Shown: positions 15,746-57,554 of the stretch, piece after piece | Position numbering within the stretch: position 1 is the stretch's first letter | Layout of the letters: each line of letters opens with the position of its first letter | Assembly: GCF_964213995.1 (NCBI RefSeq) | Contig: NW_027590179.1 | Span: 62,001 to 126,000 of the forward strand | Direction: 5' to 3' | DNA from: Mustelus asterias | Taxonomy: Eukaryota | DNA length: 64,000 bases | The notes under the pieces: generated by a model | Databases searched by the model: none | Told to the model about the DNA's origin: nothing | What the model saw: the letters and a program-made list of their open reading frames with translations, nothing else | Position numbers and translations under genes: made by a program

Positions 15746-16519
15746 CGCTCTCTCAGTCTGACACATTTATTTGTCTGGGTAAAAGGATGGTCTCTTTCCC
15801 AATGTTCACAATTAAAGAGATGGTTTCTCCAGGATAGGCTGACATTTAAATTAAGATAGGACAGAGATACGTCTAGTCTTGTAATATGGTACAGATTAGA
15901 TATATTATTTGTAATAAAATACATTAATTATTTCTAATCTTGTATTACCCTACTGTAGCTACAATATGCATTTCCAGTCAGCGTCATTACGACACAAGGT
16001 GTCCATTCAGTAACTTGAGCCTATGCTAACACTCTGTAGGACAATCCAGTCACTCCCATTCCTTCTCTACATCCCCATTCCCCCTACAGGTTATTTCCTT
16101 CAAGTGCCCCTCCAATTTCATTCTGAAATTATTCACCACCTCTGCTTCCATCAAGCTGGTAGGCAGAGAGTTTCAGGTCAGCAACACTAGCTGTCGAAAT
16201 AAAATACTCCCTCACAGCCCTATGTATCTCTAATCATGTAACAGAGTACTGTATAATTATACATCATAGTGTTATTGGGTATGTATTAAATACAGCAGAA
16301 TGTGAATAGAGAGTGTGTGGTCCAGATATTTAGGGCCTTCGATAAATGAGAGAGGAATGAATGTTCCTTCGCAATTAAAATTCTGTTCTGAATTTCTATC
16401 CTGTACTGTCACTGATTACGTTTGTAAACTCTTTTACAATATATTAGGGGAGGAGATATCGCAGACAGAACTCTCAAAGCAGATAGCACATCAGGATCTG
16501 ACAGAGTCATGGCATCAAG

Positions 16520-18085
16520 GTTGGTAAGTCGCCGGGACCGGATGGGATGTACCCCAGGTTACTGTGGGAGGCGAGGGAGGAGATTGCGGAGCCTTTGGCG
16601 ATGATCTTTGCATCGTCGATGGAGACGGGAGAGGTTCCGGAGGATTGGAGGATTGCGGATGTGGTCCCTATATTCAAGAAAGGGAACAGGGACAGCCCGG
16701 GAAATTACCGACCGGTGAGTCTAACCTCAGTGGTTGGTAAGTTGATGGAGAGGATCCTGAGAGACAGGATTTATGATCATCTAGAGAAGTTTAGTATGAT
16801 CAAAAGTAGTCAGCACGGCTTTGTCAGGGGCAGGTCGTGCCTTACGAGCCTGGTTGAGTTCTTTGAAAATGTGACCAAGCACATTGACGAAGGAAGAGCG
16901 GTGGATGTGGTCTATATGGACTTCAGCAAAGCGTTCGATAAGGTCCCCCATGCAAGACTTCTTGAGAAAGTGAGAGGGCATGGGATCCAAGGGGCTGTTG
17001 CCTTGTGGATCCAGAACTGGCTTGCCTGCAGAAGGCAGAGAGTGGCTGTGGAGGGGTCTTTCTCTGCATGGAGGTCAGTGACCAGTGGAGTGCCCCAGGG
17101 ATCTGTTCTGGGACCCTTGCTGTTTGTCATTTTCATAAATGACCTGGATGAGGAAGTGGAGGGATGGGTTGGTAAGTTTGCTGACGACACCAAGGTAGGT
17201 GGTGTTGTGGATAGTTTGGAGGGATGTCAGAAGTTGCAGCGAGACATAGATAGAATGCAAGACTGGGCGGAGAAGTGGCAGATGGACTTCAACCCGGATA
17301 AGTGTGTAGTGATCCATTTTGGCAGATCCAATGGGATGGAGCAGCAGTATAAAATGAAGGGTACCATTCTTAGCAGTGTAGAGGATCAGAAGGACCTTGG
17401 GGTCCGGGTCCATAGGACTCTTAAATCGGCCTCGCAGGTGGAGGATGCGGTCAAGAAGGCGTATGGCGTACTAGCCTTCATTAATCGAGGGATTGAGTTT
17501 AGGAGTCGGGAGATAATGCTGCAGCTTTATAGGACCCTGGTTAGACCCCACCTGGAGTACTGCGCGCAGTTCTGGTCACCTCATTACAGGAAAGATGTTG
17601 AAGCCATTGAAAGGGTGCAGAGGAGATTTACAAGGATGTTGCCTGGATTGGGGGGCATGCCTTATGAGGATAGGTTGAGGGAGCTTGGTCTCTTCTCCCT
17701 GGAGAGACGAAGGATGAGAGGTGACCTGATAGAGGTTTACAAGATGTTGAGGGGTCTGGATAGGGTGGACTCTCAGAGGCTATTTCCAAGGGCTGAAATG
17801 GTTGCTACGAGAGGACACAGGTTTAAGGTGCTGGGGGGTAGGTACAGGGGGGATGTCAGGGGTAAGTTTTTCACTCAGAGGGTGGTGGGTGAGTGGAATC
17901 GGCTGACGTCGGTGGTGGTGGAGGCAAACTCGTTGGGGTCTTTTAAGAGACTTCTGGATGAGTACATGGGATTTAATGGGATTGAGGGCTATAGATAGGC
18001 CTAGAGGTGGGGATGTGATCGGCGCAACTTGTGGGCCGAAGGGCCTGTTTGTGCTGTGGCTTTCTATGTTCTATGTTCTATGTTC
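16520..18085 (+). mobile_element. 5'-truncated young CR1 LINE inserted in the last exon (5'UTR part) of a ZNF gene
   Basis: Open RT frame; (TTCTATG)n tail; ZNF exon sequence resumes on both sides (tctgacagagtca...ttcatcgggagctgaatatcatc). Confidence 0.92.
16547..17998 (+). CDS. CR1 ORF2 reverse transcriptase domain (5'-truncated)
   Basis: GNYRPVSLTS, DFSKAFDKVPH, SGVPQGSVLGP, FADD motifs; 483 aa open. Confidence 0.85.
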   Translation: MYPRLLWEAREEIAEPLAMIFASSMETGEVPEDWRIADVVPIFKKGNRDSPGNYRPVSLTSVVGKLMERILRDRIYDHLEKFSMIKSSQHGFVRGRSCLTSLVEFFENVTKHIDEGRAVDVVYMDFSKAFDKVPHARLLEKVRGHGIQGAVALWIQNWLACRRQRVAVEGSFSAWRSVTSGVPQGSVLGPLLFVIFINDLDEEVEGWVGKFADDTKVGGVVDSLEGCQKLQRDIDRMQDWAEKWQMDFNPDKCVVIHFGRSNGMEQQYKMKGTILSSVEDQKDLGVRVHRTLKSASQVEDAVKKAYGVLAFINRGIEFRSREIMLQLYRTLVRPHLEYCAQFWSPHYRKDVEAIERVQRRFTRMLPGLGGMPYEDRLRELGLFSLERRRMRGDLIEVYKMLRGLDRVDSQRLFPRAEMVATRGHRFKVLGGRYRGDVRGKFFTQRVVGEWNRLTSVVVEANSLGSFKRLLDEYMGFNGIEGYR

Positions 18086-27352: not shown

Positions 27353-30300
27353 GGGAACATAGGAATTAGGAGCAGAAGTCGGTAAACTCAGCTCTTCGAG
27401 CCTGTTCCACCATTCAATCAGATCATGGCTGATCTCTCCCTGGTCTCAAATCCACCTCCCCACCTGTTTATACTCCAGATTCTTTACAATAAATACCAAC
27501 ATCCCATTTGCCTTTTTTATGACATGCTGCACCTGCAGACTGACTTTGTGATTCATGAACATAGACACCCAGATCCCTCTGCCTGGACACATTTTGAATC
27601 TGCTTTCCATTTAGATAATTAGCCTTTCCATTTTTTTCTGTCAGTGGATAACCTCACACTTATCCACACTAAACTCCATCTGCCAAACTTTCACCCATTC
27701 TCCTAACGTATCTATATCCATCCGTGGAATCTTTATATCCTCTTCACTGACTGCTTTCCCACCTATTTTAGTATCATTTTGCTATGTTACACTCTGTCCC
27801 TGCTTGCAGATCATTTATATAGATTGTAAAGAGTTGAGGTCTGAGGACTGATCCCTGCAGCACCCCATTAGTTACATTTTGCCAGCCAGAGAAGGACCCA
27901 TTTATCCCGACCCTCTGCTTTCTGTCAGTCAGCCAATCCTCAATCCAATCCAGTACCATACCCCCAATCCCCTGCGATCTCAACTTCTGGATTAGTCTTT
28001 CATGTAGCACCTTGTCAAACGACTTCTGGAAGTCTATGTATACCACATCCACAGGTTCCCCACTATCCACCTTGCTGGTTCTGTCCTCAAAGAATTCAAG
28101 CAAGCTTGTCAAACATGACTTACCCTGAATAAAACCATGCTGACAATAATGGATTGAGCTTTGCCATTCCAAATAATAACATAAGAAATAGGAGCAGGAG
28201 TAGGCCATCTCGCCCCTCGAGCCTGCCCCGCCATTCAATAAGATCATGGCTGATCTGATAGTGGTTTAGTTCCACTTACCCACCCGCTCCCCATAACCCT
28301 TAATTCCCTTATTGATCAGAGATCTATCTACCTGTGACTTCAACATATTTAACGAGGTAGCCTCCACTGCTTCAATGGGCAGAGAATTCCAGAGATTCAC
28401 TACCCTCTGAGAGAAGAAGTTCCTCCTCAACTCTGTTCTAAACTGACTCCCCCTTATTTTGAGGCTGTGTCCTCTAGTTCTTGTTTCCTTTCTAAGTGGA
28501 AGGAATCTCTCTGCCTCTACCCTATCCAGCCCCTTCATTATCTTATATGTCTCTATAAGATCTCCCCTCAGCCTTCTAAACTCCAATGAGTACAGGCCCA
28601 ATCTACTCAATCTCTCCTCATAAGCTAACTTCCTCATCTCCGGTATCAACCTGGTGAACCTTCTCTGTACTCCCTCCAAGGCCAATACATCCTTCCGCAA
28701 ATAAGGGGACCAAAATTGCACACAGTACTCTAGTTGCGGCCTCACCAGTACCTTGTACAATTGCAGCAAGACCTCCCTGCTTTTATACTCCATCCCTCTT
28801 GCGATAAAGGCCAACATTCCATTTGTCTTCTTGATCACCTGCTGCACCTGCAAACTGAGTTTTTGCGATTCATGCACAAGGACCCCCAGGTCCCTCTGCA
28901 CAGTAGCATGTTGTAATTTTCTACCATTTAAATAATAGTCCATTTTACTATTATTCCTTCCAAAGCGGATAACCTCACACTTGTCAACGTTATACTCCAT
29001 CTGCCAGATCCTCGCCCACTCACTTAGCCTATCCAAATCTCTCTGCAGACTTTCCACATCCTCCACGCAATTCGCTTTCCCACTCATCTTTGTGTCATCC
29101 ACAAACTTTGTTACCCTACACTCGGTCCTCTCCTCCAGATCGTCTATGTATATGGTAAATAGTTGAGGCCCCAGCACCGATCCCTGCGGCACGCCACTGG
29201 TCACCAACTGCCAACCAGAAAAGCACCCATTTATTCCAACTCTCTGCTTCCTATTAGATAGCCAATCCCCAATCCACGCCAACACCTTACCCCTAACTCC
29301 GTGTACCCCAGTCTTCTTCAGCAACCTTTTGTGAGGCACCTTATCGAACGCCTTCTGGAAATTCAAAAACACCACATCCACCGGTTCCCCTCTGTCAACT
29401 GCACTCGTTACATCTTCATAAAAATCCAGTAAATTCGTCAAACACGACTTTCCCTTCATGAATCCATGCTGCGTCTGCTTGATCGAACCATTTTTTTCCA
29501 GGTGTCTGCTATTTCTTCTTTAATGATGGATTCCAGCAATTTCCCAACTACAGACGTTAAGCTAACCGGCCTGTAGTTACCCGCCTTTTGTCTACCTCCT
29601 TTTTAAAACAGTGGCGTCACATTAGCTGTTTTCCAATCAGCCGGCACTTCCCCAGAGTCCAGCGAATTTTGATAAATTACAACCAATGCATCCGCTATTA
29701 CTTCTGCCATTTCTTTCAGTACCCTGGGATGCATTCCATCCGGGCCCAGGGACTTGTCTACCTTTAGTCCCATTAGCCTACCAAACACTACCTCTTTAGT
29801 AATAGTAATCGTTTTAAGGACCTCGCCCCCTACAGTCCCACGACCGTCAATTTTCGGTAAGCTATTTGTGTCCTCTACCGTGAAGACCGACACAAAAAAC
29901 TTGTTTAAGGCTTCGGCCATTTCCTCGTTTCCCATTATTAAATCCCCCTTCTCGTCTTCTCAGGGTCCAACATTTACTTTAGCTACTCTTTTCCTTTTTA
30001 TATATTTGTAAAAACTTTTACTATCAGTTTTTATATTTTGTGCCAGTTTAGTTTCATAATCTATCTTTCCTTTCTTTATTGCTTTCTTAGTAGTTCTTTG
30101 TTGTTTTTTAAAGCTTTCCCAATCTTCTAGTTCCCCACTAGTTTTGGCCACTCTGTACGCATCGGTTTTTAATTTAATACTCTCCTTTATTTCCTTAGTT
30201 ATCCACGGCTGGTTATCCTTTTTCTTACATTCCTTCTCCTTCATCTCCTCCTTAACGATTGATTCCAGCAACCTCCTCACTGCAGAGGGCAAGTGAACTT

Positions 30301-30700
30301 GCCTTTGGTTTCCTACTTCTTTTCCCTCTCCCTTTTTGAATAAGGGATTACATTAGCATGTTTCCAATCCACCGGGACCTCACCAGAATCCAAGGAATTT
30401 TGAAATATCACAACTAATGCATCCACTATTTCTGCTGCCACCTCCTTTAATACCTAAGGGTGCAGGTTATCAGGTCCCAGAGACTTATCTGCCTTTAATC
30501 CTTTTAGTTATTGTACCAAGTTCCTCTACATTAACGACAATTTTTGGAAATTCTTCATGATTCTCTACCATGAAGACAGAGGCAAAATATTGGTTTAGTG
30601 TCTCTGCCATCTCTGCGTTCCCCATCATCAGTATTGTCCTCTAAAGGACCAACATTTACTTTAGCTATTCTCTTCCTCTTTGTATACTTATAGTTCCCCC
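27353..30700 (-). mobile_element. Nested CR1 LINE fragments (younger 28178-30230 inside an older copy)
   Basis: RT ORFs 28266-29459, 29603-29935, 27774-28247; two separate CR1 3' tails. Confidence 0.88.
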
Positions 30701-33449: not shown

Positions 33450-33665
33450 CATAGAACAAAGAACAATACAGCACAGGAACAGGCCCTTCGGCCCTCCAAG
33501 CCCGTGCTGCTCCCTGGTCCAAACTAGACCATTCTTTTGTATCCCTCCATTCCCACTCCGTTCATGTGGCTATCTAGATAAGTCTTAAACGTTCCCAGTG
33601 TGTCCGCCTCTACCACCTTGCCTGGCAGCGCATTCCAGGCCCCCACCACCCTCTGTGTAAAATAC
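33450..33665 (-). mobile_element. CR1 3' end inserted in another LINE remnant (33135-33800)
   Basis: Closely similar to 48940-49160; (TTCTTTG) tail. Confidence 0.8.
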
Positions 33666-34566
33666 ATGCCAAATTTTCTTAGCCTCCTGAGAAAGCAGAG
33701 GTGTTGGTGGCCTTTCTTAACTATAGTGTTGGCGTGGAGGGACCAGGACAGGTTGTTGGTGATCTGGACACCTCAAATCATGAAGCTCTCAACCATTTCC
33801 ACTTCTGGAACAGACATCCAGAAGTCCAGCCCAATGCTCTGGGGACATGGGTTCAAATCCCCAATTCAATTAATGAACCTGGAATTCTAAAGCTAGTCTC
33901 AGTAATGATGTCCATGTTAGTTATCATCGATTGTTGTAAAACTTTACCAATGTCCTTTAGGGAAGGAAATCTGCCATCCTTATCTGGTCTGGCTTACGTG
34001 TGACTCTGGACTCACAGCAATGTGGTTGGGTCGAGGGCCGAGCAAGTCACTCAGTTCAGGGACAATAAGGGATGGGTAACAAGTTCTGGCCTTTCCAGTG
34101 ATGCCCACATCCCAGGAGACAATAAAATAAAATGTTCTGACCCTCTTCAGCTCCCCCAACCGGCTTCACTCCACCTGCACTTTCACCTGCTGAGGTCCTA
34201 AAGGATGGAAATCCCTCACTAAACCTGCTCCTTACCTTTTCAACCCAGCTTCTTACCGTATGTGAAGGGTCTCGGTACATTCTAACCTGTTACTGGGTAA
34301 ATACCAATTGTTGTCACCGCTTTTCATCTGAAAACTCAGGAATGCCACAAAAACATTTGGAAACTTCAGATCAGAGACATTTCAGACTGGAATAGTCACT
34401 TGTGGTCAGGAACAGCTCGCAGTTTTATATCAATCTGATTTCAGAGCATGCTTTGTAAACAATCACTATCTAATAATCTTCATCAAATGTAAAAAAGTTC
34501 CTTGAAAATTAACAGAACAGCACTCTCTGTCCCTCCCTCTCTCCCTCACAAGGCTTCATTCTATGA

Positions 34567-36156: not shown

Positions 36157-36597
36157 GGTGCCGGTGTCCTTGTGTCGCTCCAGGTTGGACACTCAGTTGA
36201 ATCCTCGTCCACACACAGAACCTGTGCACGGTTTCTCCTTGCTGTGAATGGTGTGATATTTTTTCAGGCTGTGTAACTGGTTAAAGCTCTTTCCATTGTC
36301 AGTTCACAGAAATACTCTCTCAGGTATTTGTGTGTGTCTCAGTGCTTTTCCAGTCACACTGATGTTTGAAATCTTTTCCCACAGACAGAACAAACATTTC
36401 TCCTTCCACATTCAAAGGGCAATGATATTCAGACCCTGATGAATCGAGTGACTCTGTCAGATCTCAATGTGATGTCTGTTTCTGTCTGTAATTCCTCCTT
36501 TCCAATATTCTGTAAAACAGTTTACAAAAGTCATCAGTCAGTCCAGGATAGAAATTTTGAACAATTTTAGTTTCTCTGGAACATTTTTTCCTCTCTT

Positions 36598-37195
36598 GCT
36601 TGCCTTCATTGGCCAGGGCATCAAGTATAAAAGTTAGCAAGATGTGTTACAGCTGTATAAAACTTTAGTTAGGCCACATTTGGAGTATTACATGCAGTTC
36701 TGGTCGCCACACTACCCGAAGGACGTGGATGCTTTGGAGAGAGTATAAAGAAGGTTTACCAGATGTTGCCCAGTCTAGAGGGTTTAAGGTATGAAAAGAG
36801 GTTGGATAAACCTGGATTGTTTTCACTGGAAAGACGGAGACTGAGGGGTGACCTGATAGAAATCTACAAAATTATGAGTTGCATAAATAGGGTGGATAGT
36901 CAGAGGCTTTTTCCCAGGGTGGAAGGGTTGACTACGAGAGGGCACAGGTTCAAGGTGAGGTGGGGAAAGTTTTTCACACAGAGGGTTGTGGGTGCCTGGA
37001 ACATGCTGCCAATGGAGGTTGTGGAAGCAGGCACGTTAGCAACGTTCAAGGCGTATGTTGATAGACACACAAATGGGAGACAAACAGAGGGATAGAATCC
37101 ATATAGGGACAATAAGTAGTGGGTGTAAATTAGGAATCAGCACAGGCTCGGTGGGCCAAAGGGCCTGTTCCTGTGCTGCATTGTTCTTTGTTCTC
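36598..37195 (+). mobile_element. CR1 3' fragment in ZNF intron (antisense)
   Basis: LFSLERRRLRGDLIE; CR1 tail. Confidence 0.85.
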
Positions 37196-40571: not shown

Positions 40572-41048
40572 GAACCATAGAACCATAGAAAATTACAGTT
40601 CAGAAACAGGCCTTTTGGCCCTTCTTGTCTGTGCTGAACCATTTTTTACCTAGTTCCACTGACCTGCACTTGGACCATATCCCTCCACACCCCTCTCATC
40701 CATGAACCCGTCTAAGTTTTTCTTAAATGTTAAAAGTGACCCCGCATTTACCACTTTATCCGGCAGCTCATTCCACACTCCCACCACTCTCTGCGTGAAG
40801 AAGCCCCCCCTAATATTCCCTTTAAAATTTTATCCTTTCACCCTTAACCCATGCCCTCTGGTTTTTTTCTCCCCTAGCCTCAGCGGAAAAAGCCTGCTTG
40901 CATTCACTCTATCTATACCCATCAAAATCTTATACACCTCTATCAAATCTCCCCTCAATCTTCTACGCTCCAGGGAATAAAGTCCCAACCTATTCAATCT
41001 CTCTCTGTAACTCAGCTTCTCAAGTCCCGGCAACATCCTTGTGAACCT
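40572..41048 (-). mobile_element. CR1 3' fragment
   Basis: MLPGLEKLSYRERLNRLGLYSLERRRLRGD; (TTCTATGG) tail. Confidence 0.85.
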
Positions 41049-47906: not shown

Positions 47907-49021
47907 TTAAGAGATTATTCCTCAAATTGAAATTGACAAAATAAATTGATATGAGTGGCTGATTTGAACATCCAAAGGGAAAGTTTAAGGGAATAATCAC
48001 ATTGTCAGAACAAAAAGAAACTAACAACTAACAGCCAGGTGGTTCCCCAGTGTCAAAAACGATTTCTTTTTCACAATAATATTTCTACTTGAATTTGGGT
48101 TAATTTCGGAAAAAAAGTCAGAGAAAATTTGTGTTATTTTTAGGAAATAAAAGACCATCTAAAACAAAGATCTTGATAATGCCTGAAATCAAATATGATT
48201 ATAATATATGAAATATGATATGGGGAAGTTTAGGAGTGAGAGGAGGAGAAATTTCTTCATGCAGAGAGTGGTGAACTTGTGGAATTCGCCAGCACAGAAG
48301 GCTGTGGAGGCCAAAACATTAGAAATATATCTGTTTACCTTCTGAGATATATTCAGACTCTAAAAGCCTCAAGGAGTTTGGGGAGATCAGTGGAGAATAA
48401 TGTTGAGATAGGGGATCAGTCATGATCATCTTGAATTGCAGAACAGGATCGAAGGGCCAAATGACCTATCCTGCTCCTATTTTCTATGTTTCTGGAAGTC
48501 AACAAAACAAGATTCTCATCAGGACTGTTGTTAAAAATGGAAACGAGGAATTACACATCTTCAGCCTGATCAACCAACATAAATTATAAAAGTCTGTTCT
48601 GTTAAGTATATTTTTCCATTCTATATTGACAAGTATTTTTCTTTTAAATAAGCTTCCTTCAATTGATTATATAAGATTCCTGAGATAGAATCCCTACAGT
48701 GCTGAAGGAGGCCATTTGGCCCATGGAACCTGCACCAACAACAATCCCACCCAGGCCTAACCTCATAACCCATTTACTCTGCTAATCCCCCTGACACTAA
48801 AGGTCAATGTAGAATAGCCAATCAACCTAACCCACACATCTTTGGAGTGTGAGGAAACCAGAGCACCTGGAGGAAACCCACACAGACATGGGGAGAACGT
48901 CTTATCCAGTGGTTAAAAGTCTTGTTTAAAGTAAAATAACAAAGAACAAAAGAACAAAGAACAGTACAGCACAGGAAACAGGCCCTTCGGCCCTCCAAGC
49001 CTGTGCCGCTCCTTGGTCCAA

Positions 49022-51946
49022 CTAGACCAATCGTTTGTATCCCTCCATTCCCAGGCTGCTCATGTGACTATCCAGGTAAGTCTTAAACGATGTCAGCGTG
49101 CCTGCCTCCACCACCCTACTTGGCAGCGCATTCCAGGCCCCCACCACCCTCTGTGTAAAAAACGTCCCTCTGATGTCTGAGTTATACTTCGCCCCTCTCA
49201 GCTTGAGCCCGTGACCCCTCGTGATCGTCACCTCCGACCTGGGAAAAAGCTTCCCACTGTTCACCCTATCTATACCCTTCATAATCTTGTATACCTCTAT
49301 TAGATCTCCCCTCATTCTCCGTCTTTCCAAGGAGAACAACCCCAGTCTACCCAATCTCTCCTCATAGCTAAGACCCTCCATACCAGGCAACATCCTGGTA
49401 AACCTTCTCTGCACTCTCTCCAATGCCTCCACGTCCTTCTGGTAGTGCGGCGACCAGAACTGGACGCAGTACTCCAAATGCGGCCTAACCAGCGTTCTAT
49501 ACAGCTGCATCATCAGACTCCAGCTTTTATACTCTATACCCCGTCCTATAAAGGCAAGCATACCATATGCCTTCTTCACCACCTTCTCCACCTGTGTTGC
49601 CACCTTCAAGGATTTGTGGACTTGCACACCTAGGTCCCTCTGTGTTTCTATACTCCTGATGACTCTGCCATTTATTGCATAACTCCTCCCTACATTATTT
49701 CTTCCAAAATGCATCACTTCGCATTTATCCGGATTAAATTCCATCTGCCACCTCTCCGCCCAATTTTCCAGCCTATCTATATCCTGCTGTATTGTCCGAC
49801 AATGCTCTTCGCTATCCGCAATTCCAGCCATCTTTGTGTCATCCGCAAACTTGCTGATTACACCAGTTACACCTTCTTCCAAATCATTTATATATATCAC
49901 AAATAGCAGAGGTCCCATTACAGAGCCCTGCGGAACACCACTGGTCACAGACCTCCAGCCGGAAAAAGACCCTTCGACCACTACCCTCTGTCTCCTATGG
50001 CCAAGCCAGTTCTCCACCCATCGAGCCACTTCTCCTTGTATCCCATGAGCCTTAACCTTCTTAACCAACCTGCCATGTGGGACTTTGTCAAATGCCTTAC
50101 TGAAATCCATATAGACGACATCCACGGCCCTTCCTTCGTCAACCATTTTGGTCACTTCTTCAAAAAACACCACCAGGTTAGTGAGGCACGACCTCCCTCT
50201 TACAAAACCATGCTGTCTGTCACTAATGAGATTGTTCCGTTCTAAATGCGCATACATCCTGTCTCTAAGAATCCTCTCCAACAACTTCCCTACCACGGAC
50301 GTCAAGCTCACCGGCCTATAATTTCCTGGGTTATCCCTGCTACCCTTCTTAAACAACGGGACCACATTCGCTATCCTCCAATCCTCAGGGACCTCACCCG
50401 TGTCCAAAGAAGCGACAAAGATTTCCGTCAGAGGCCCAGCAATTTCCTCTCTCGTCTCCCTGAGCAGTCGAGGATAGATGCCATCAGGCCCTGGGGCTTT
50501 GTCAGTTTTAATGTTCCCTAAAAAACCTAACACTTCCTCTCTCGTAATGGAGATTTTCTCTAACGGGTCAACACCTCCCTCCGAGACACTCCCGGTTAAC
50601 ACGCCCCTCTCCTTCGTGAATACCGATGCAAAGTATTCATTTAGGATCTCCCCTATTCCCTTGGGTTCTAAGCATAATTCCCCTCCTTTGTCCCTGAGAG
50701 GTCCGATTTTCTCCCTGACAACTCTTTTGTTCCTAACGTATGAATAGAATGCCTTAGGATTCTCCTTAATCCTGCCTGCCAAGAACATCTCGTGCCCTCT
50801 TTTTGCCCTTCTAACTCCCCGTTTGAGATCTTTCCTACTCTCTCTGTATTCCTCCAGAGCTCCATCTGTTTTCAGTTGCCTGGACTTAACGTACGCCTCC
50901 CTTTTCATTTTAATCAGATCCTCAATTTCCCTGGTTATCCACGGCTCTCGAATCCTACCTTTCCTATCTTTCCTTTTTACAGGCACATGCCTATCCTGCA
51001 GCCTTATCAATAGTTCCTTAAAAGACTCCCACATGCCAGACGCGGACTTACCCTCGAACATCCCCCCCCAATCAACATCCACCAATTCCTGCCTAATCCG
51101 GCTATAGTCAGCCTTCCCCCAATTTAGCACCCTGCCCGTAGGACAGCACTCATCCTTGTCCATTACTATCCTAAAGTTAACAGAGTTGTGGTCACTATTT
51201 GCCACATGTTCCCCTACCGAAACTTTGACGACCTGACCGGGCTCATTTCCCAGAACTAGGTCCAGTATAGCCCCCTCTCTAGTCGGGCTATCTACATACT
51301 GTTCCAAAGAACCTTCCAGTACGCATTTTACAAATTCCTCCCCGTCCGGTCCCCCAGCTCTAAGCACTTTCCAGTCTGTGCCAGGGAAATTAAAGTCCCC
51401 CACTACAACAACCCTATTTTTTCTGCACCTATCCAGAATCTCCTGACATATCCTTTCCTCCACTTCCCGTGGGCTGTTGGGTGGTCTGTAGTACACCCCC
51501 AGCATAGTGACTGCACCCTTCCTGTTTCTGAGTTCCACCCACAGCGACTCAGTACATGACCCCTCTAAGTTGTCTCCCCTCTGCACCGCGGTAATATGCT
51601 CCTTAACTAATATCGCTACTCCCCCACCTTTTTTAGCCCCTCCTCTGTCTCGCCTAAAACACTGATACCCCGGAATATTCAGCTGCCAGTCCTGTCCTTC
51701 TTTTAACCAAGTTTCCGTCACCGCAACCACATCCAAATTCCGCACAAGCATTAAGGCCCTAAGTTCGTCTGTTTTACCCGTTACACTCCTCGCATTGAAG
51801 CAGATGCACTCCAGACCTCCAGGCCCAGTCAGGTCCTCCTCCTCCAGAGTGCTCCTCTTCTTAGCTAGCCTTGCCCTGGCCCCCAGCTCGACCCCAGCCT
51901 CAGTATTTACTGACCTCCTGTTTTGTTCCCCACCCCCCTGCCACAC
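49022..51946 (-). CDS. CR1 ORF2p: APE endonuclease plus reverse transcriptase; no ATG before the endonuclease domain
   Basis: FNARS, VTETW, GDFN, SDHN, GVPQGS, FADD motifs; 974 codons open. Confidence 0.93.
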   Translation of the reverse strand: MWQGGGEQNRRSVNTEAGVELGARARLAKKRSTLEEEDLTGPGGLECICFNARSVTGKTDELRALMLVRNLDVVAVTETWLKEGQDWQLNIPGYQCFRRDRGGAKKGGGVAILVKEHITAVQRGDNLEGSCTESLWVELRNRKGAVTMLGVYYRPPNSPREVEERICQEILDRCRKNRVVVVGDFNFPGTDWKVLRAGGPDGEEFVKCVLEGSLEQYVDSPTREGAILDLVLGNEPGQVVKVSVGEHVANSDHNSVNFRIVMDKDECCPTGRVLNWGKADYSRIRQELVDVDWGGMFEGKSASGMWESFKELLIRLQDRHVPVKRKDRKGRIREPWITREIEDLIKMKREAYVKSRQLKTDGALEEYRESRKDLKRGVRRAKRGHEMFLAGRIKENPKAFYSYVRNKRVVREKIGPLRDKGGELCLEPKGIGEILNEYFASVFTKERGVLTGSVSEGGVDPLEKISITREEVLGFLGNIKTDKAPGPDGIYPRLLRETREEIAGPLTEIFVASLDTGEVPEDWRIANVVPLFKKGSRDNPGNYRPVSLTSVVGKLLERILRDRMYAHLERNNLISDRQHGFVRGRSCLTNLVVFFEEVTKMVDEGRAVDVVYMDFSKAFDKVPHGRLVKKVKAHGIQGEVARWVENWLGHRRQRVVVEGSFSGWRSVTSGVPQGSVMGPLLFVIYINDLEEGVTGVISKFADDTKMAGIADSEEHCRTIQQDIDRLENWAERWQMEFNPDKCEVMHFGRNNVGRSYAINGRVIRSIETQRDLGVQVHKSLKVATQVEKVVKKAYGMLAFIGRGIEYKSWSLMMQLYRTLVRPHLEYCVQFWSPHYQKDVEALERVQRRFTRMLPGMEGLSYEERLGRLGLFSLERRRMRGDLIEVYKIMKGIDRVNSGKLFPRSEVTITRGHGLKLRGAKYNSDIRGTFFTQRVVGAWNALPSRVVEAGTLTSFKTYLDSHMSSLGMEGYKRLV

Positions 51947-52968
51947 TAGTTTAAATCCTGCCGAAACACTCGAGCAAAACTCCCAGCCAGGATATTTGCT
52001 CCCTTCCAGTTAAGGTGTAACCCATCCTTTCTGTACAGTTGCCATCCTGACTTGAAGATTTCCCAGTTATCTATGAATTTAAAACCCTCCCTCTTGCACC
52101 AGTCCTTTAGCCACGCGTTCAACTGTAGAATCTCCCTGTTCCGAGCCTCACTTGCACTAGGCACCGGGAGCAGTCCAGAGATTGCTACACTGGAGGTCTT
52201 ACTTTTTAGCCTAGCACCCAACTCCCTGAATTTCTCTCGTATGACCCCCCTGCTCTTCCTACCTACATCATTTCCCCCAATGTGTACAATCACATCCGTT
52301 TGACTACCTTCCTTTTTAAATATGCTTCCTACCCTCTCGGTGACATCCAGTACCCCGGCACCAGGGAGGCAGACTACCATCCTGGATTCTCGTTCAGTCC
52401 CACAGAAGCGCCTGTCCGTGCCTCTAACTATTGCGTCCCCCACAACTATCGCTCTCCTAAACCCCTTCTTTCCCTTCCGGACCCCTGAGCCTGTCTCCGT
52501 GGAGGCGATCTGGTCCTCGTGGCTTACCCCTGGAGGGTCATCCCCCTCCACAGAATCCAAAACAATATACCTATTGTGGAGGGGGACAACCACAGGGGAT
52601 CCCTCCACAGACTGCTCACTCCCTTCCCTTCTCCCATCTGTTGCCCATCCCTTTCTCTTATGGGAGACTGCCACTGGGGTGCTTTCTGGCACATCACCCT
52701 TCTGACTATTACCCCTCCTAACCGTGACCCACGTGTCTTCCTTCCGAGACCCTGGTGTCACTACCTGACTATAACTTTTATCTATGACTCTCTCATTTTC
52801 CCTAACTAAACTGAGTTCATCGAGCCTCAGCTCCCTTACACGATCCTTCAGGAGATGCAGTTCCACACATCTGGCACAGATATGGACTTCCGGGAGGCAA
52901 GTTGTCTCCAGGAACTCCCACATCCCACACCGAATGCAGTATACTGGCCTCCCACTCATACCAGCCAT
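51946..52968 (-). CDS. CR1 ORF1p: CxxC..CxxC zinc finger, coiled coil, SGNH/GDSL esterase domain
   Basis: CIRC..CARC; IVVGDAIVRG, VHIGGND, DGLHLN motifs. Confidence 0.88.
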   Translation of the reverse strand: MAGMSGRPVYCIRCGMWEFLETTCLPEVHICARCVELHLLKDRVRELRLDELSLVRENERVIDKSYSQVVTPGSRKEDTWVTVRRGNSQKGDVPESTPVAVSHKRKGWATDGRREGSEQSVEGSPVVVPLHNRYIVLDSVEGDDPPGVSHEDQIASTETGSGVRKGKKGFRRAIVVGDAIVRGTDRRFCGTERESRMVVCLPGAGVLDVTERVGSIFKKEGSQTDVIVHIGGNDVGRKSRGVIREKFRELGARLKSKTSSVAISGLLPVPSASEARNREILQLNAWLKDWCKREGFKFIDNWEIFKSGWQLYRKDGLHLNWKGANILAGSFARVFRQDLN

Positions 52969-53289
52969 GTCCTTTTTAGTTTTGGGGATAAAACAAAAAG
53001 GGGGTGTAACCAAAGAAAAACAAACAAACAACCTTCCTCGCCGAAGCCCTGTGAGCCAAAGCCCTTTTAGCTCTACTCTGTCCCCTGCTCACTCCGCTGC
53101 CCGCTAACGACGCTGCCCGCTCAAAGGTGCGGCCTACTTTTAAACCCTCCAAAACCTTCCCAGGCTGCTGCTGGGCCTATTTCCTGTTTAGAAAAAAAAA
53201 CCTCCGATTTTTTTCACTAATTTAACTGAAAAATAATTAAATAAATTAGTGCACAAACAAGCTCCCTTACCCTCAGCCTGCTCCTGTGG

Positions 53290-54059: not shown

Positions 54060-54760
54060 ATGAACATACAAATTAGGAGCAGGAGTAGGCCACTCGGCCC
54101 CTCTAGCCTGCTCCACCACTCAATAAGACCCTGGTTGATCTGATTGTAACCTCAAATCCACATTCCTTTTACCCCCTGTTAATCAAGAATCTATCCAGCT
54201 CTGCCTTCAAAATATTCAAAGACACTGCTTCCAATGCTTTTTGAGGAAGACCCAGAGACTCGCTGCCCTCTAAGAGAAAACATTTATTTCTCATCTTTGT
54301 GTCAACTGAGCAACATTTTATTTTTCAATAATGTATTCAATAATAAGTATTAGATTCGCTCACATGAGAAATCATCCTCTTTAATTCGATCCTGTCAAAA
54401 TACCTCAGGAACTGAAAAAGATTTCAATCAAATTGCCTCTTACTCTTTTAAGCTCCAGCAGATACAAGCTCAGGCTACTCAGTCTTTCCTCATAAGACAA
54501 TCTCCCATTTCTGGTATAGTCTAGTAGACCTTCTCTGAACTGCTTCTAACACATTTACATTCTTCTTTAAATAAGGAGACAAATACTTTAATCATATTCC
54601 AAATCGCCAGTGTTCTGTAAAGCAGAAGCATAAGCTCTGTTTTGTATTCAATTCCCCTCACAATGAACAATAACATTATGTTAACTTTCCCAATTACTTG
54701 CTGTACACTTCTACTAGCCTTTTGTGACTCATGAACCAGGACACTCAGAATCCTCTGACG
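54060..54760 (-). mobile_element. Degenerate CR1 3' fragment
   Basis: VLVHESQKAS..VQQVIGKVN..RGIEYK; CR1 tail. Confidence 0.75.
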
Positions 54761-54970
54761 GGGAACTGAATTTCTCCTCACAGTCTCCACATTTACACGG
54801 TTTCTCCCTAATGTGACTGTGGATGTGAATGGTGCTGTTTCCTTCCATGTTCAAAATTCTCTGCTGTTAAGGTTACGATAAATTGTGCAGCTCCATCCAA
54901 TCCTGATCTGATATTCTGTGTGAGTATCCTGACCCCAAATCCTCCTTCTAAGCCAATTATATTAACACCT
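54760..54970 (-). pseudogene. 5' fragment of a MEGKS-type ZNF exon truncated by CR1
   Basis: gaacatggaaggaaacagcaccattcac...gagaaaccgtgtaaatgtggagactgt. Confidence 0.6.
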
Positions 54971-55068: not shown

Positions 55069-55653
55069 TTACTTGTGAATTTGCTGGTGTTTTCGCAGCC
55101 TGGATGAAGTAATGTATCCCTTCCCACACTGGGAGCAAGTGAATGGCCTCTCCCCAGTGTGAGTTCGCTGGTGATTTAGCAGTGTGCATGAGGTAATAAA
55201 TCCCTTTCCACACACAGAGCAGGTGAATGGCCTCTCCCCAGTATGAATTCGCTGGTGTTTCAGCAGCATGGCTGAGGTAGTGAATCCCTTCCCACACTGG
55301 GAGCAGGTGAATGGCCTCTCCCCAGTGTGAACTCGTTGATGATTTAGCAGCGTGGATGACTGAGTGAATCCCTTCCCACACTGAGAGCAGATGAATGGCC
55401 TTTCCTCAGTATGAATTCGCTCGTGTATCGCTAGGTTGGATGACTGATTGAATTCCTTCCTACACACAGAACATGTGAACGGTCTCTCCCCTGTGTGAAT
55501 TCGCTGGTGTTTCAGCAGATGGGATGAGGTAGTGAATCCCTTCCCACATTGAGAGCAGGTGAACGGTCTCTCCCCTGTGTGAATGCGTCGATGAGTTTCC
55601 AGGTGGGATGGGTAATCAAATCCCTTCCCACAATCCTCACATTTCCAAGCCAT
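55069..55653 (-). CDS. Tandem C2H2 zinc-finger protein (7 fingers); upstream MEGKS start lost (ATA) and frameshifted
   Basis: MAWKCEDC...HQQIHK*. Confidence 0.65.
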   Translation of the reverse strand: MAWKCEDCGKGFDYPSHLETHRRIHTGERPFTCSQCGKGFTTSSHLLKHQRIHTGERPFTCSVCRKEFNQSSNLAIHERIHTEERPFICSQCGKGFTQSSTLLNHQRVHTGERPFTCSQCGKGFTTSAMLLKHQRIHTGERPFTCSVCGKGFITSCTLLNHQRTHTGERPFTCSQCGKGYITSSRLRKHQQIHK

Positions 55654-57554
55654 CTCCCTGTTGCGATTGCAATTATGTTCCGAAAGGCCAGATGATTGGG
55701 TGAAGTCTTGTCCACACACACAGAACACGTGTACAGTTTCTCTCCACTGTGAATGGTGCTTTTTCCTTCTATATTCAAAATACAATGATATTCAGGTTAC
55801 AATAAATTGGTCGACTCAATCAGGTCTGAGATCACATTTGATTTCTGTTTACCAACTGCAAATCCCCCTCTCCTAAAATGCTGTGAAATTGATTTAGAAC
55901 AGAAAAAAACTCATTTTCTTCTCATGCAACTGGCAAACATTATTTTATCTATGGAAAGAGACATAAAGTTAAAAGGCAAAAGCGATCGAAGGATATGGGG
56001 GTTTGGGCTATTATCATAATGAACAGAAGAGCAGGCTTGAAGGGCCAAATGGCCTACTCCTGATCCTATTTTCTATGTTTCGATGGAACTCAATGTCTAT
56101 GAGGATGGTGGAACAGGAGACAAATGGTTTCAAAATGAGATTGGATTGGCACACAAAGGAAATGAACATGCTGCACTAATGGAGATATAGAGGGGAATGG
56201 GGCTGAGTGATCGCTTTGCAGAAAGTTGACATGGACTCAAGTTCCTTCTGAAGTGTGGAGTCTATGACTGGAAATGTATAACATCGCTGCAGTACCAGAT
56301 TACAAGAATGGAAATAATAAATACATTATTTTACTGAAATATAAATATTAGACCTAATACGTACTATAAAACAACACTGGATATATCTCTTCTTGTGGCG
56401 TCCCAAGCCAACTGATAACTCTAAAATAAACACATTTCCAGACAATTCCAAGGATAAAATGAGTGAGGTTTCACTTTTTAAAATGTTTCATTGTAAAAGT
56501 CAAAATAAAAGCAACATAAATGAATCAGGCATTGACAGACAAATAGCATTTGAATAGATGGGATACTTTTTACTTCAATAAAACCAGTCTCCACAAAATC
56601 ACCAGCAATTCCTCCCTTAGAATTCATGGCAGTAATTTAATTTACTACAACTCTCTGTATTTCCCAGAGAGAAAAAACACAGGAGAATGGCACTCAGTCA
56701 AAATGCTCATTTGAAGAGTCGGGTACAGATATAATGTTCTAAATGGCCCGTATATATTTATACATTTGCATATTTAATGGATAATAAATGTGTGTAATAT
56801 ACAGCTCTCTGTTATGTGATTGGCGAGATAGGGATCAGTGAGGAAGAACTTTGTTTAGGCCCTGGAACTTGCTGCTGATGAGAGTGGTGCAACAAGAGAT
56901 GATCAGTGATTTCAAAATGAAATTTGATGAACACTTGAAGGAAATAAACTTTCAGGGAAATGGGGATATCGAGGAGGTATGGAATTGACTGACTTTCTCT
57001 ACAGAGGGTTGGTATTGACTTGAGTTGCCAAATAGATTCATTTTGTGCCACAATGACTCTGTGGCTGGAAATATAAAACAGCAACGCTGCTATATATTTC
57101 AAGACAAAAAATAATTATAATGAACTTCAGAGAATCATAAATGATTTTGTGTGTGCCATATGACCATACTATCTCTGTCCTCAGTTGATTTACTCTTCCT
57201 TTAAACGTCATCCATCTCTTGGGAAAACGTTATAATTGTGAACATTAGATAGGAGGCCATCCTATTAACCAGACAAATAAATGTGTCAAACTGAGAGCTA
57301 AAGGATGTCTTTGAGAGAAAAAGGAAAACTTCCCCCTCTGGCCAACATCTGTGAGTAAAACACTTTCTTTCTCCCCCTGGGAAATACAGAGAGTTGTGGG
57401 ACTCTGTAACTGGAATTAGAGCCAAATATACTGAGGGGGAAATGTTTGTGATTTTGTGGAATCTGTTTTTATTGTTTGAGCTATTTAATGACAAAGTTAT
57501 CATGCGCATTCAAATACAATTTGAATGTCATTGCATGATTCAGCAATGTTCAAA

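Follow-up and report, generated by a model that had tools for sequence, protein, structure and literature searches.

A full-length CR1-clade LINE in the genome of Mustelus asterias probably expresses its second open reading frame by programmed −1 ribosomal frameshifting, which would yield an ORF1-ORF2 fusion; judging from sequence comparisons, we put the probability of this reading at about 0.8. The element lies in the window, the whole stretch of 64,000 nucleotides that was analysed (assembly GCF_964213995.1, contig NW_027590179.1, positions 62,001 to 126,000), and its features are given in Table 1. It is assigned to the CR1 clade with an esterase ORF1 on the basis of its architecture and of the grouping of its ORF1 with reptile and bird relatives, rather than of a reverse transcriptase tree.

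Table 1. Features of the CR1 element and its ORF1-ORF2 junction (positions are those of the window)
Feature	Positions	Strand	Basis or remark
CR1-clade LINE, full-length, young, 4.3 kb	48940..53248	minus	99% identity with two further copies in the genome across about 4,316 nt
5' UTR	52969..53248	minus	From shared 5' boundary to first ORF1 ATG
ORF1, 340 aa, C-terminal D-L-N-stop	51946..52968	minus	Translation; Pfam PF13472
TAA in ORF2 (−1) frame	52010..52012	minus	18 codons 5' of heptamer
Slippery heptamer T_TTA_AAC, predicted −1 shift site	51949..51955	minus	In phase with ORF1
ORF1 stop TAG	51946..51948	minus	Adjoins heptamer; CTA = Leu in −1 frame
G-run, conserved, candidate 3' stimulator	51928..51938	minus	10 nt 3' of heptamer; Gly-x-Gly in −1 frame
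Linker, shift site to endonuclease	51815..51945	minus	About 45 codons; open in −1 frame only
First ATG in ORF2 frame	51749..51751	minus	Residue 69, 16 residues into endonuclease match
APE-type endonuclease, ORF2	51188..51799	minus	PF03372, residues 53-256 numbered from heptamer
Reverse transcriptase, ORF2	49685..50344	minus	PF00078, residues 538-757
ORF2 stop, short 3' UTR and T-rich simple-repeat tail	48940..49024	minus	

The N-terminus of ORF1 is Cys-rich and, by reading of the sequence, zinc-finger-like and leucine-zipper-like; it is followed by an SGNH esterase whose profile also matches the ZfL2-1 ORF1 esterase 4C1B (E 1e-34). The −1 frame of ORF2 is open for 977 codons, and a phmmer search of the endonuclease against the PDB gave no match. 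The proteins nearest to the element come from sharks and rays. Dispersal of the family is evident from 1,519 candidate copies in this genome, from many ORF2-only fragments within the window and from the T-rich repeat at the 3' end; all 40 of the copies scored were 100% identical over the 301-nt junction.

The initial annotation had read the junction on the minus strand as GAT TTA AAC TAG TGT GGC AGG GGG GTG GGG, and this reading was correct, as were the in-phase (X_XXY_YYZ) placement of the heptamer just 5' of the ORF1 stop, the −1 frame of ORF2 (FKLVWQ) with an in-frame TAA shortly upstream, and the lack of an ATG in that frame until the endonuclease (Table 1). The upstream TAA closes the ORF2 frame to any start further 5'. 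A single such heptamer is no more than chance would supply: XXXYYYZ words number 23 on the element's sense strand, and 222 instances of TTTAAAC were counted across 1.6 Mb of sampled strands. Its conservation, by contrast, exceeds chance. We located 206 ORF1 ends through the upstream DG.HL motif, with queries that omitted the last four residues. The stop occupied the expected codon in 181 of them, preceded by TTTAAAC in 179 and by TTTAAAT in two.

Junctions were then compared among 13 lineage representatives (43-82% identical). All seven heptamer bases are invariant in all 13, a count taken from the one genome with full junction DNA spanning both ORFs and from lineages that are related rather than independent trials. 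The codon before the heptamer encodes D, R, T, S, G or A, yet ends in T in every representative. Third positions are invariant at 3/3 sites in the heptamer versus 0/23 upstream, TTA accounts for only 20 of 173 Leu codons, and none of 18 internal Leu-Asn pairs reads T_TTA_AAC. By these sequence measures, the heptamer is conserved as nucleotides, beyond the needs of the protein. The stop that follows varies (TAG in six representatives, TAA in five, TGA in two). Heptamer and phase are conserved across CR1 lineages at the nucleotide level within this genome and, at the protein level, in rays, reptiles, frog and birds outside it, which supports the −1 frameshift originally proposed for this site.

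No start codon is shared at the 5' end of ORF2. None of the 13 representatives has an ATG in the interval from the upstream stop to the heptamer, and five of them, this very young family included, have none before the endonuclease; the other eight carry a linker ATG at eight different positions. In the ORF2 frame, an AUG that overlaps the ORF1 stop or lies close to it occurs in one representative only (L069, a single copy). The codon after CTA may be GTG, GAT, GAG, GTA, ATT, AAT, ATA, ATG, GTT or GCA; initiation at the GTG, once considered for this junction, is rejected, as GTG stands there in 1 of 13. L1 and SART1 resemble CR1 in having a bicistronic LINE RNA with ORF2 at low level, but their ORF2 has an AUG of its own or begins at a UAAUG stop-start (PMC5009743 and PMC10275272, accessible parts), neither of which is found at this junction.

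The linker holds no stop in the −1 frame, three in frame 0 and two in +1; because representatives were chosen with a preference for an open frame, the product of open-frame probabilities was not used. In an unselected count, 149 of the 181 copies had the endonuclease motif in the −1 frame, 139 of them stop-free. Linker length differs between lineages by multiples of three. Purifying selection on linker amino acids was not detected (pN/pS of 1.0 for the −1 frame and 0.54 for +1, from six non-independent pairs). Linker dN/dS is uninformative, and its control values for the endonuclease and ORF1 are in part invalid, owing to indels in pairs that were compared without gaps. Visual inspection of the linker revealed no 2A-like motif.

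Beyond this genome, 104 ORF1 relatives included 61 ending in LN, nine in GN and 33 otherwise, with tails of 24-39 aa and LN or GN ends in several deep clades. Proteins ending Leu-Asn-stop were found in rays, houndshark, snake, lizard, turtle, swallow and frog. In a distant GN clade, two DNAs (L121 and L122) read G_GGA_AAC at the end of ORF1; this heptamer and U_UUA_AAC are both listed among the most shift-prone in the accessible part of PMC5009743. Read in the −1 frame, L121 gives GKLGWIGGQG; an ATG also stands in its +1 frame just past the stop. The L121 DNA extends 29 nt beyond the stop codon and that of L122 less far, so an ORF2 in the GN clade would lie outside the available DNA; a search for fused GN-clade proteins, which is weak evidence, gave one unrelated match only. 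In gene models from a ray and a stork, FKL-x-x-x-G follows ORF1-like sequence and precedes the endonuclease motif by about 95-110 aa. The alignment with the solved ZfL2-1 esterase extends no further than the helix preceding the LN position, and the apparent clade of that esterase lacks LN, which indicates that the esterase fold does not need these residues.

Could the junction be conserved for another reason? Termination followed by restart on ORF2 near the ORF1 stop, with or without an AUG and with the conserved bases serving as the reinitiation signal, is an unlikely explanation. It is the route described for mammalian L1 (AUG-independent, PMC5009743) and SART1 (PMC10275272), in the parts of these sources that were accessible; the 181 copies all retain the stop at precisely the junction, and an open, unconstrained linker would suit it equally. 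It nevertheless leaves unexplained why the conserved bases form an in-phase XXXYYYZ word and why this switches to G_GGA_AAC in distant relatives, and neither an AUG nor a near-cognate codon is common to the representatives. A join at the RNA level, in which splicing, or slippage of the polymerase on the T3A3 run, brings ORF2 in frame with ORF1, is very unlikely. A CAG does lie 8 nt past the heptamer in seven of 13 representatives, and lineages with a TAA stop contain CTAAT, which we take to be branch-point-like. No YAG position, however, is common to all 13; the spacing is far below the usual distance from branch point to acceptor; splicing would leave an in-phase heptamer unfixed; and slippage during transcription usually needs runs longer than three bases.

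Least credible, and in our view close to negligible, is that ORF1p requires a C-terminal Leu-Asn, or that the junction is simply inherited, with ORF2 started from lineage-specific linker AUGs. The clustering of LN ends on a quick version of the ORF1 tree (11 changes versus 33 for shuffles) and the linker ATGs of 8/13 representatives would fit such an account. It does not explain the fixed synonymous positions (the rare TTA, the AAC and the T that closes six different codons), the variable tail length, the GN ends, the absence of LN from the ZfL2-1-like group or the 5/13 representatives without an ATG before the endonuclease.

Under −1 frameshifting, a fraction of ribosomes would slip back one base at U_UUA_AAC and continue into a fusion of esterase, linker, endonuclease and reverse transcriptase of about 1,315 aa, while non-slipping ribosomes would stop at the ORF1 stop and release ORF1p, perhaps giving the two products in a Gag/Gag-Pol-like ratio. 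We infer that slippage would proceed by re-pairing of the Leu and Asn tRNAs, with D-L-N-L-V-W-Q at the junction. The peptide predicted by the initial annotation, DLKLVWQ or DFKLVWQ, should thus be replaced, since two-tRNA slippage would mainly give DLN-LVWQ (mechanism as in PMC6771820).

The signal for pausing is the least certain part of this scheme. Most eukaryotic −1 sites carry a 3' structure; a stimulatory stem-loop or pseudoknot would be expected 5-9 nt past the heptamer. At the CR1 junction, no conserved stable stem-loop was found 3' of the heptamer (folding z-scores within 1 SD of shuffles in 12/13 representatives, in tests of a G-rich, C-poor region that did not model pseudoknots explicitly), and no long-range pairing partner is common to the 13 elements; a hairpin stimulator was rejected. 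What is conserved is G at +8, +9, +15 and +16 after the stop in 13/13, and the G-run window has the highest G4Hunter score of the ORF1-ORF2 region (1.84). The G-rich tract does start 6 nt after the heptamer, as first described, but its conserved core begins only at 10 nt. The G-quadruplex suggested there has partial support: it is predicted in 9/13 representatives, mostly as a two-tier fold, and in none of the other four; the optimal spacing for quadruplex stimulators is 6-8 nt (PMC3919603), and the 10-nt spacing counts against this form of stimulation. The pause signal is most likely the G-run, which might bind a protein or form a weak quadruplex. A role for the adjacent stop was also proposed at the outset, and slow termination there may aid pausing. 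The stop adjoins the heptamer here, but not always in distant clades (L122).

A homopolymer-rich motif likewise lies about 10 nt from the shift site of PRRSV nsp2TF, and the two junctions appear alike in that a short homopolymer-rich stretch, not a fold, stands behind the shift site, the CR1 motif being G-rich. The nsp2TF frameshift is trans-stimulated by nsp1beta and a poly(C)-binding protein, and the coronavirus (IBV) 1a/1b and retroviral gag-pol sites have the same heptamer class in the same phase as CR1, a structural protein upstream, a polymerase downstream and an immediate stop for non-shifting ribosomes (all from the accessible part of PMC5009743). CR1 differs from IBV and gag-pol in that no pseudoknot or stem-loop was found, the G-run standing at a 10-nt spacer and the stop at zero spacer. 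Among LINEs, the precedent is Dictyostelium TRE5-A and TRE3-A, likewise of APE type, in which a figure legend of PMC5911963 says that ORF2 requires a −1 frameshift; their ORF1 is unrelated to that of CR1 and their clade is different. Vertebrate CR1 elements with a type IV (zf/lz and esterase) ORF1, CR1 subgroup 7, have the same two ORFs (esterase ORF1, APE and RT ORF2) in about 4.3 kb, and the accessible part of the source gives no mechanism for their ORF2 translation (PMC4120745). The words frameshift, overlap, slippery and reinitiation do not appear in a 2026 vertebrate-wide survey (PMC13343379), and no description of −1 frameshifting in CR1 was found in the searchable literature, whose coverage excludes the original CR1 papers.

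In most vertebrates, the dominant retrotransposons belong to the CR1 group (PMC13343379, accessible part). If the frameshift is real, LINEs can employ the retroviral Gag-Pol strategy and CR1 ORF2p would be redefined as a fusion with ORF1p, which would explain annotated ORF2 proteins without a sensible start and inform the design of CR1 retrotransposition assays. The lack of a classical RNA fold suggests that the stimulator is unusual. A broader reading, which we regard as possible though doubtful, is that an ancient −1 frameshift, yielding a Gag-Pol-like ORF2 fusion, is common to CR1 elements of the esterase type, from sharks to birds, and to distant relatives. Its stimulator would be not a base-paired fold but the G-run, to which a protein of the host or of the element binds, together with the adjacent stop. 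Such a site would represent a new class of frameshift signal in the LINE that predominates in most vertebrates, and would tether a lipid-binding esterase to the reverse transcriptase.

Viral contigs scanned with the reptile/bird and GN alignments contained no relative. Contigs bridging the junction were obtained from 4 of 15 sequencing runs, whose RNA status was guessed; among those listed, none had a heptamer indel or splice-type joint, and as contigs drop rare forms they were not counted as evidence. Prokaryote genomes gave one distant SGNH match, on a bacterial record and ending at the contig end, which was not used. The single metagenome scanned contained two short loci.

The minus strand at 51957-51928 reads exactly as in the initial annotation, which had placed a T_TTA_AAC heptamer in phase with ORF1 immediately before its TAG stop, and ORF2 in the -1 frame behind an in-frame TAA; both placements hold. 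ORF1 encodes 340 aa carrying an SGNH esterase, and from the heptamer the -1 frame is open for 977 codons, ending at 49022, with APE and RT domains. As also claimed, no ATG precedes the endonuclease in this frame: the first Met is residue 69 whereas the Pfam endonuclease match begins at residue 53, so that an AUG start would remove the first conserved strand. The junction sequence is identical in all 40 scored copies of the family, and in 22 of the 30 copies retrieved ORF2 stays open as far as the end of the locus, indicating that the layout is typical of a recently active family rather than a defect of one copy. Judging by the nearest named proteins, the host is probably a cartilaginous fish. 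Because the whole element contains 23 words of the form XXXYYYZ, a single heptamer carries little meaning by itself.

Features of the CR1 element, its surroundings and related loci (window positions)
Feature	Position or loci	Strand	Remark
CR1 element	53248-48940	minus	99% identity to two further full-length copies
Heptamer T_TTA_AAC	51955-51949	minus	in ORF1 phase, TAG next
TAA opening the -1 frame	52012-52010	minus	18 codons upstream of the heptamer
5'-truncated ORF2 fragments, older CR1 families	4371-5461, 16514-17995, 27464-30549, 33527-33670, 36596-37092, 40677-41048, 54417-54769
C2H2 zinc-finger array exon	55069-55791	minus	just upstream of the CR1 element
Loci with length change noted in the G-run after the ORF1 stop	L073, L083, L087, L098, L103, L137, L143, L179, L186

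Further CR1 lineages of the genome were collected with divergent ORF1 queries lacking the final four residues, together with 80 evenly spaced 10-kb stretches, and ORF1 ends were placed by a DG.HL motif 26 codons upstream. Of 206 sites found, 25 were removed: 4 at a locus edge and 21 whose first stop lay elsewhere owing to indels, nonsense changes or truncation. Among the remaining 181 junctions, in which a few large families predominate, 179 carry TTTAAAC and 2 carry TTTAAAT. The evenly spaced stretches, an unselected 800 kb, held 10 sites, one of them edge-cut; 8 of the other 9 contain TTTAAAC and one had lost a T. The 181 junctions formed 15 clusters, which after removal of two indel-bearing duplicates left 13 representatives (7 multi-copy, 6 single). 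These share 43-82% identity across the last 69 nt, and the heptamer is invariant in all of them; the preceding codon specifies six different amino acids and always ends in T, and each of 23 third positions upstream varies. Leu is encoded by TTA in 20 of 173 cases and Asn by AAC in 32 of 81, and none of 18 internal Leu-Asn pairs reads T_TTA_AAC. Phase is conserved as well, as the proposed comparison of CR1 lineages had called for: 149 of the 181 copies have the endonuclease motif in the -1 frame (139 of them open), 23 have it in a different frame and 9 gave no match to it, and the -1 phase is kept throughout stop-to-endonuclease distances of 116, 119, 125, 134, 137, 179, 215 and 347 nt.

Beyond this genome, 18 of 21 close ORF1 relatives reaching the C-terminus end in Leu-Asn (LN). 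Among 174 ORF1-related proteins, 104 had a usable tail, near-duplicates included, ending in LN (61), GN (9), KN (1) or otherwise (33). In a quick tree, LN ends turn up on tails of 25-39 aa in several deep-branching clades, and the signal is missing from two clades; named carriers, identified from protein ends only, include snake, lizard, turtle, swallow and frog. Three gene models (P0017 from a ray, P0202 and P0203 from a stork) carry the -1 frame as FKL-x-x-x-G running into the endonuclease. In the GN clade, ORF1 ends G_GGA_AAC_TAG at one metagenome locus and G_GGA_AAC_TAC_TAG at another; the -1 frame of the former, GKLGWIGGQG, resembles the shark FKLxWQGGG. This replacement of one canonical shift site by a second, through three base changes, is the strongest sign that selection acts on slipperiness itself; its limit is that both contigs end within 30 nt, too soon to show ORF2. 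The two well-supported esterase-ORF1 clades without LN or GN (P0089, P0095, P0097, P0132, P0147, P0158 and P0165; P0109, P0112, P0135, P0148, P0153, P0159, P0163 and P0166) are natural negative controls in which ORF2 is probably expressed otherwise. The P0089 group shares a DGLHP motif with the solved ZfL2-1 esterase. KN, FFR, FFN and SN ends, seen in P0098, P0099, P0119, P0164, P0091 and P0133, could encode other shift sites, such as A_AAA_AAC or U-runs.

The proposed G-quadruplex stimulator is only partly supported. A conserved G-run occupies +8 to +17 past the stop; four of its positions are G in 13/13 representatives, among them the third base of a codon whose amino acid varies. The Gly codons in the run have G as their last base in 11/13 and 12/13 representatives, against 31/88 in ORF2, and the run is the highest G4Hunter window in the coding region. 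However, ViennaRNA folded a quadruplex in only 9/13, mostly two-tier, and the spacer is 10 nt, whereas the optimum reported in the covered part of PMC3919603 is 6-8 nt. Binding of a protein, as in PRRSV, would be an equally tenable alternative. The adjacent ORF1 stop may add a pause; in L122, a GN-clade locus, it lies one codon further on. No conserved hairpin (folding z within 1 SD in 12/13) and no common long-range pairing partner was found among the representatives. G-run length is altered in about 9 of the 23 copies with the endonuclease outside the -1 frame, so the run is prone to indels, or else to homopolymer errors of the assembly, and single copies can look like readthrough or +1 layouts for that reason. 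In locus L178 (G000:C140:143500-146500) the G-run has grown to >30 bases with the -1 frame still open.

Two-tRNA -1 slippage at the heptamer, a mechanism described in the covered part of PMC6771820, is the most likely explanation (probability about 0.8). It would yield the junction peptide D-L-N-L-V-W-Q and an ORF1-ORF2 fusion of 340 + 975 = 1,315 aa. Against it count the absence of a classical 3' structure, the neutral amino-acid evolution of the linker between shift site and endonuclease, and the origin of all complete junctions (both ORFs) in one genome. Reinitiation, for which L1 and SART1 are precedents, agrees with the fixed ORF1 stop but leaves the heptamer unexplained, and we regard it as unlikely. 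No ATG occurs in the ORF1/ORF2 overlap of the 13 representatives; ahead of the endonuclease, 5 of them lack any ATG and the remaining 8 carry one at 8 different codons. Splicing or polymerase slippage, for which shared signals are absent, is less probable still, and constraint on the encoded protein, which fails at synonymous sites, is the least credible of all. Judged from sequence, the junction of esterase-type CR1 LINEs is a genuine and ancient candidate site of programmed -1 frameshifting, and one open to a precise test.

The full-text literature searched yielded no description of CR1 frameshifting and no paper joining retrotransposon CR1 with UUUAAAC; since Haas 1997 and Kajikawa 1997, which lie outside it, may refer to an overlap or frameshift, the novelty of the signal is provisional. 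In the portions covered, PMC13343379 lacks the term frameshift, PMC5009743 treats HeT-A frameshifting and L1 reinitiation without CR1, and a review legend (PMC5911963) states that a -1 frameshift is necessary for TRE5-A and TRE3-A. Partial coverage extended to PMC5006619, PMC3905857, PMC10275272, PMC2734521, PMC4120745, PMC13405545 and PMC11835228.

None of the numerous ORF2 fragments left in the window by older CR1 families, all of them 5'-truncated, includes an ORF1 junction. Block I of the ORF1 esterase (window 52184 region; motif at about 52440-52432) reads GDA in the element's active family versus GDS in most relatives; we take the serine to be the catalytic residue, and the family's esterase may be inactive. 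The element itself is located in a zinc-finger gene region, where a degenerate frame related to the C2H2 array is also present on the plus strand.
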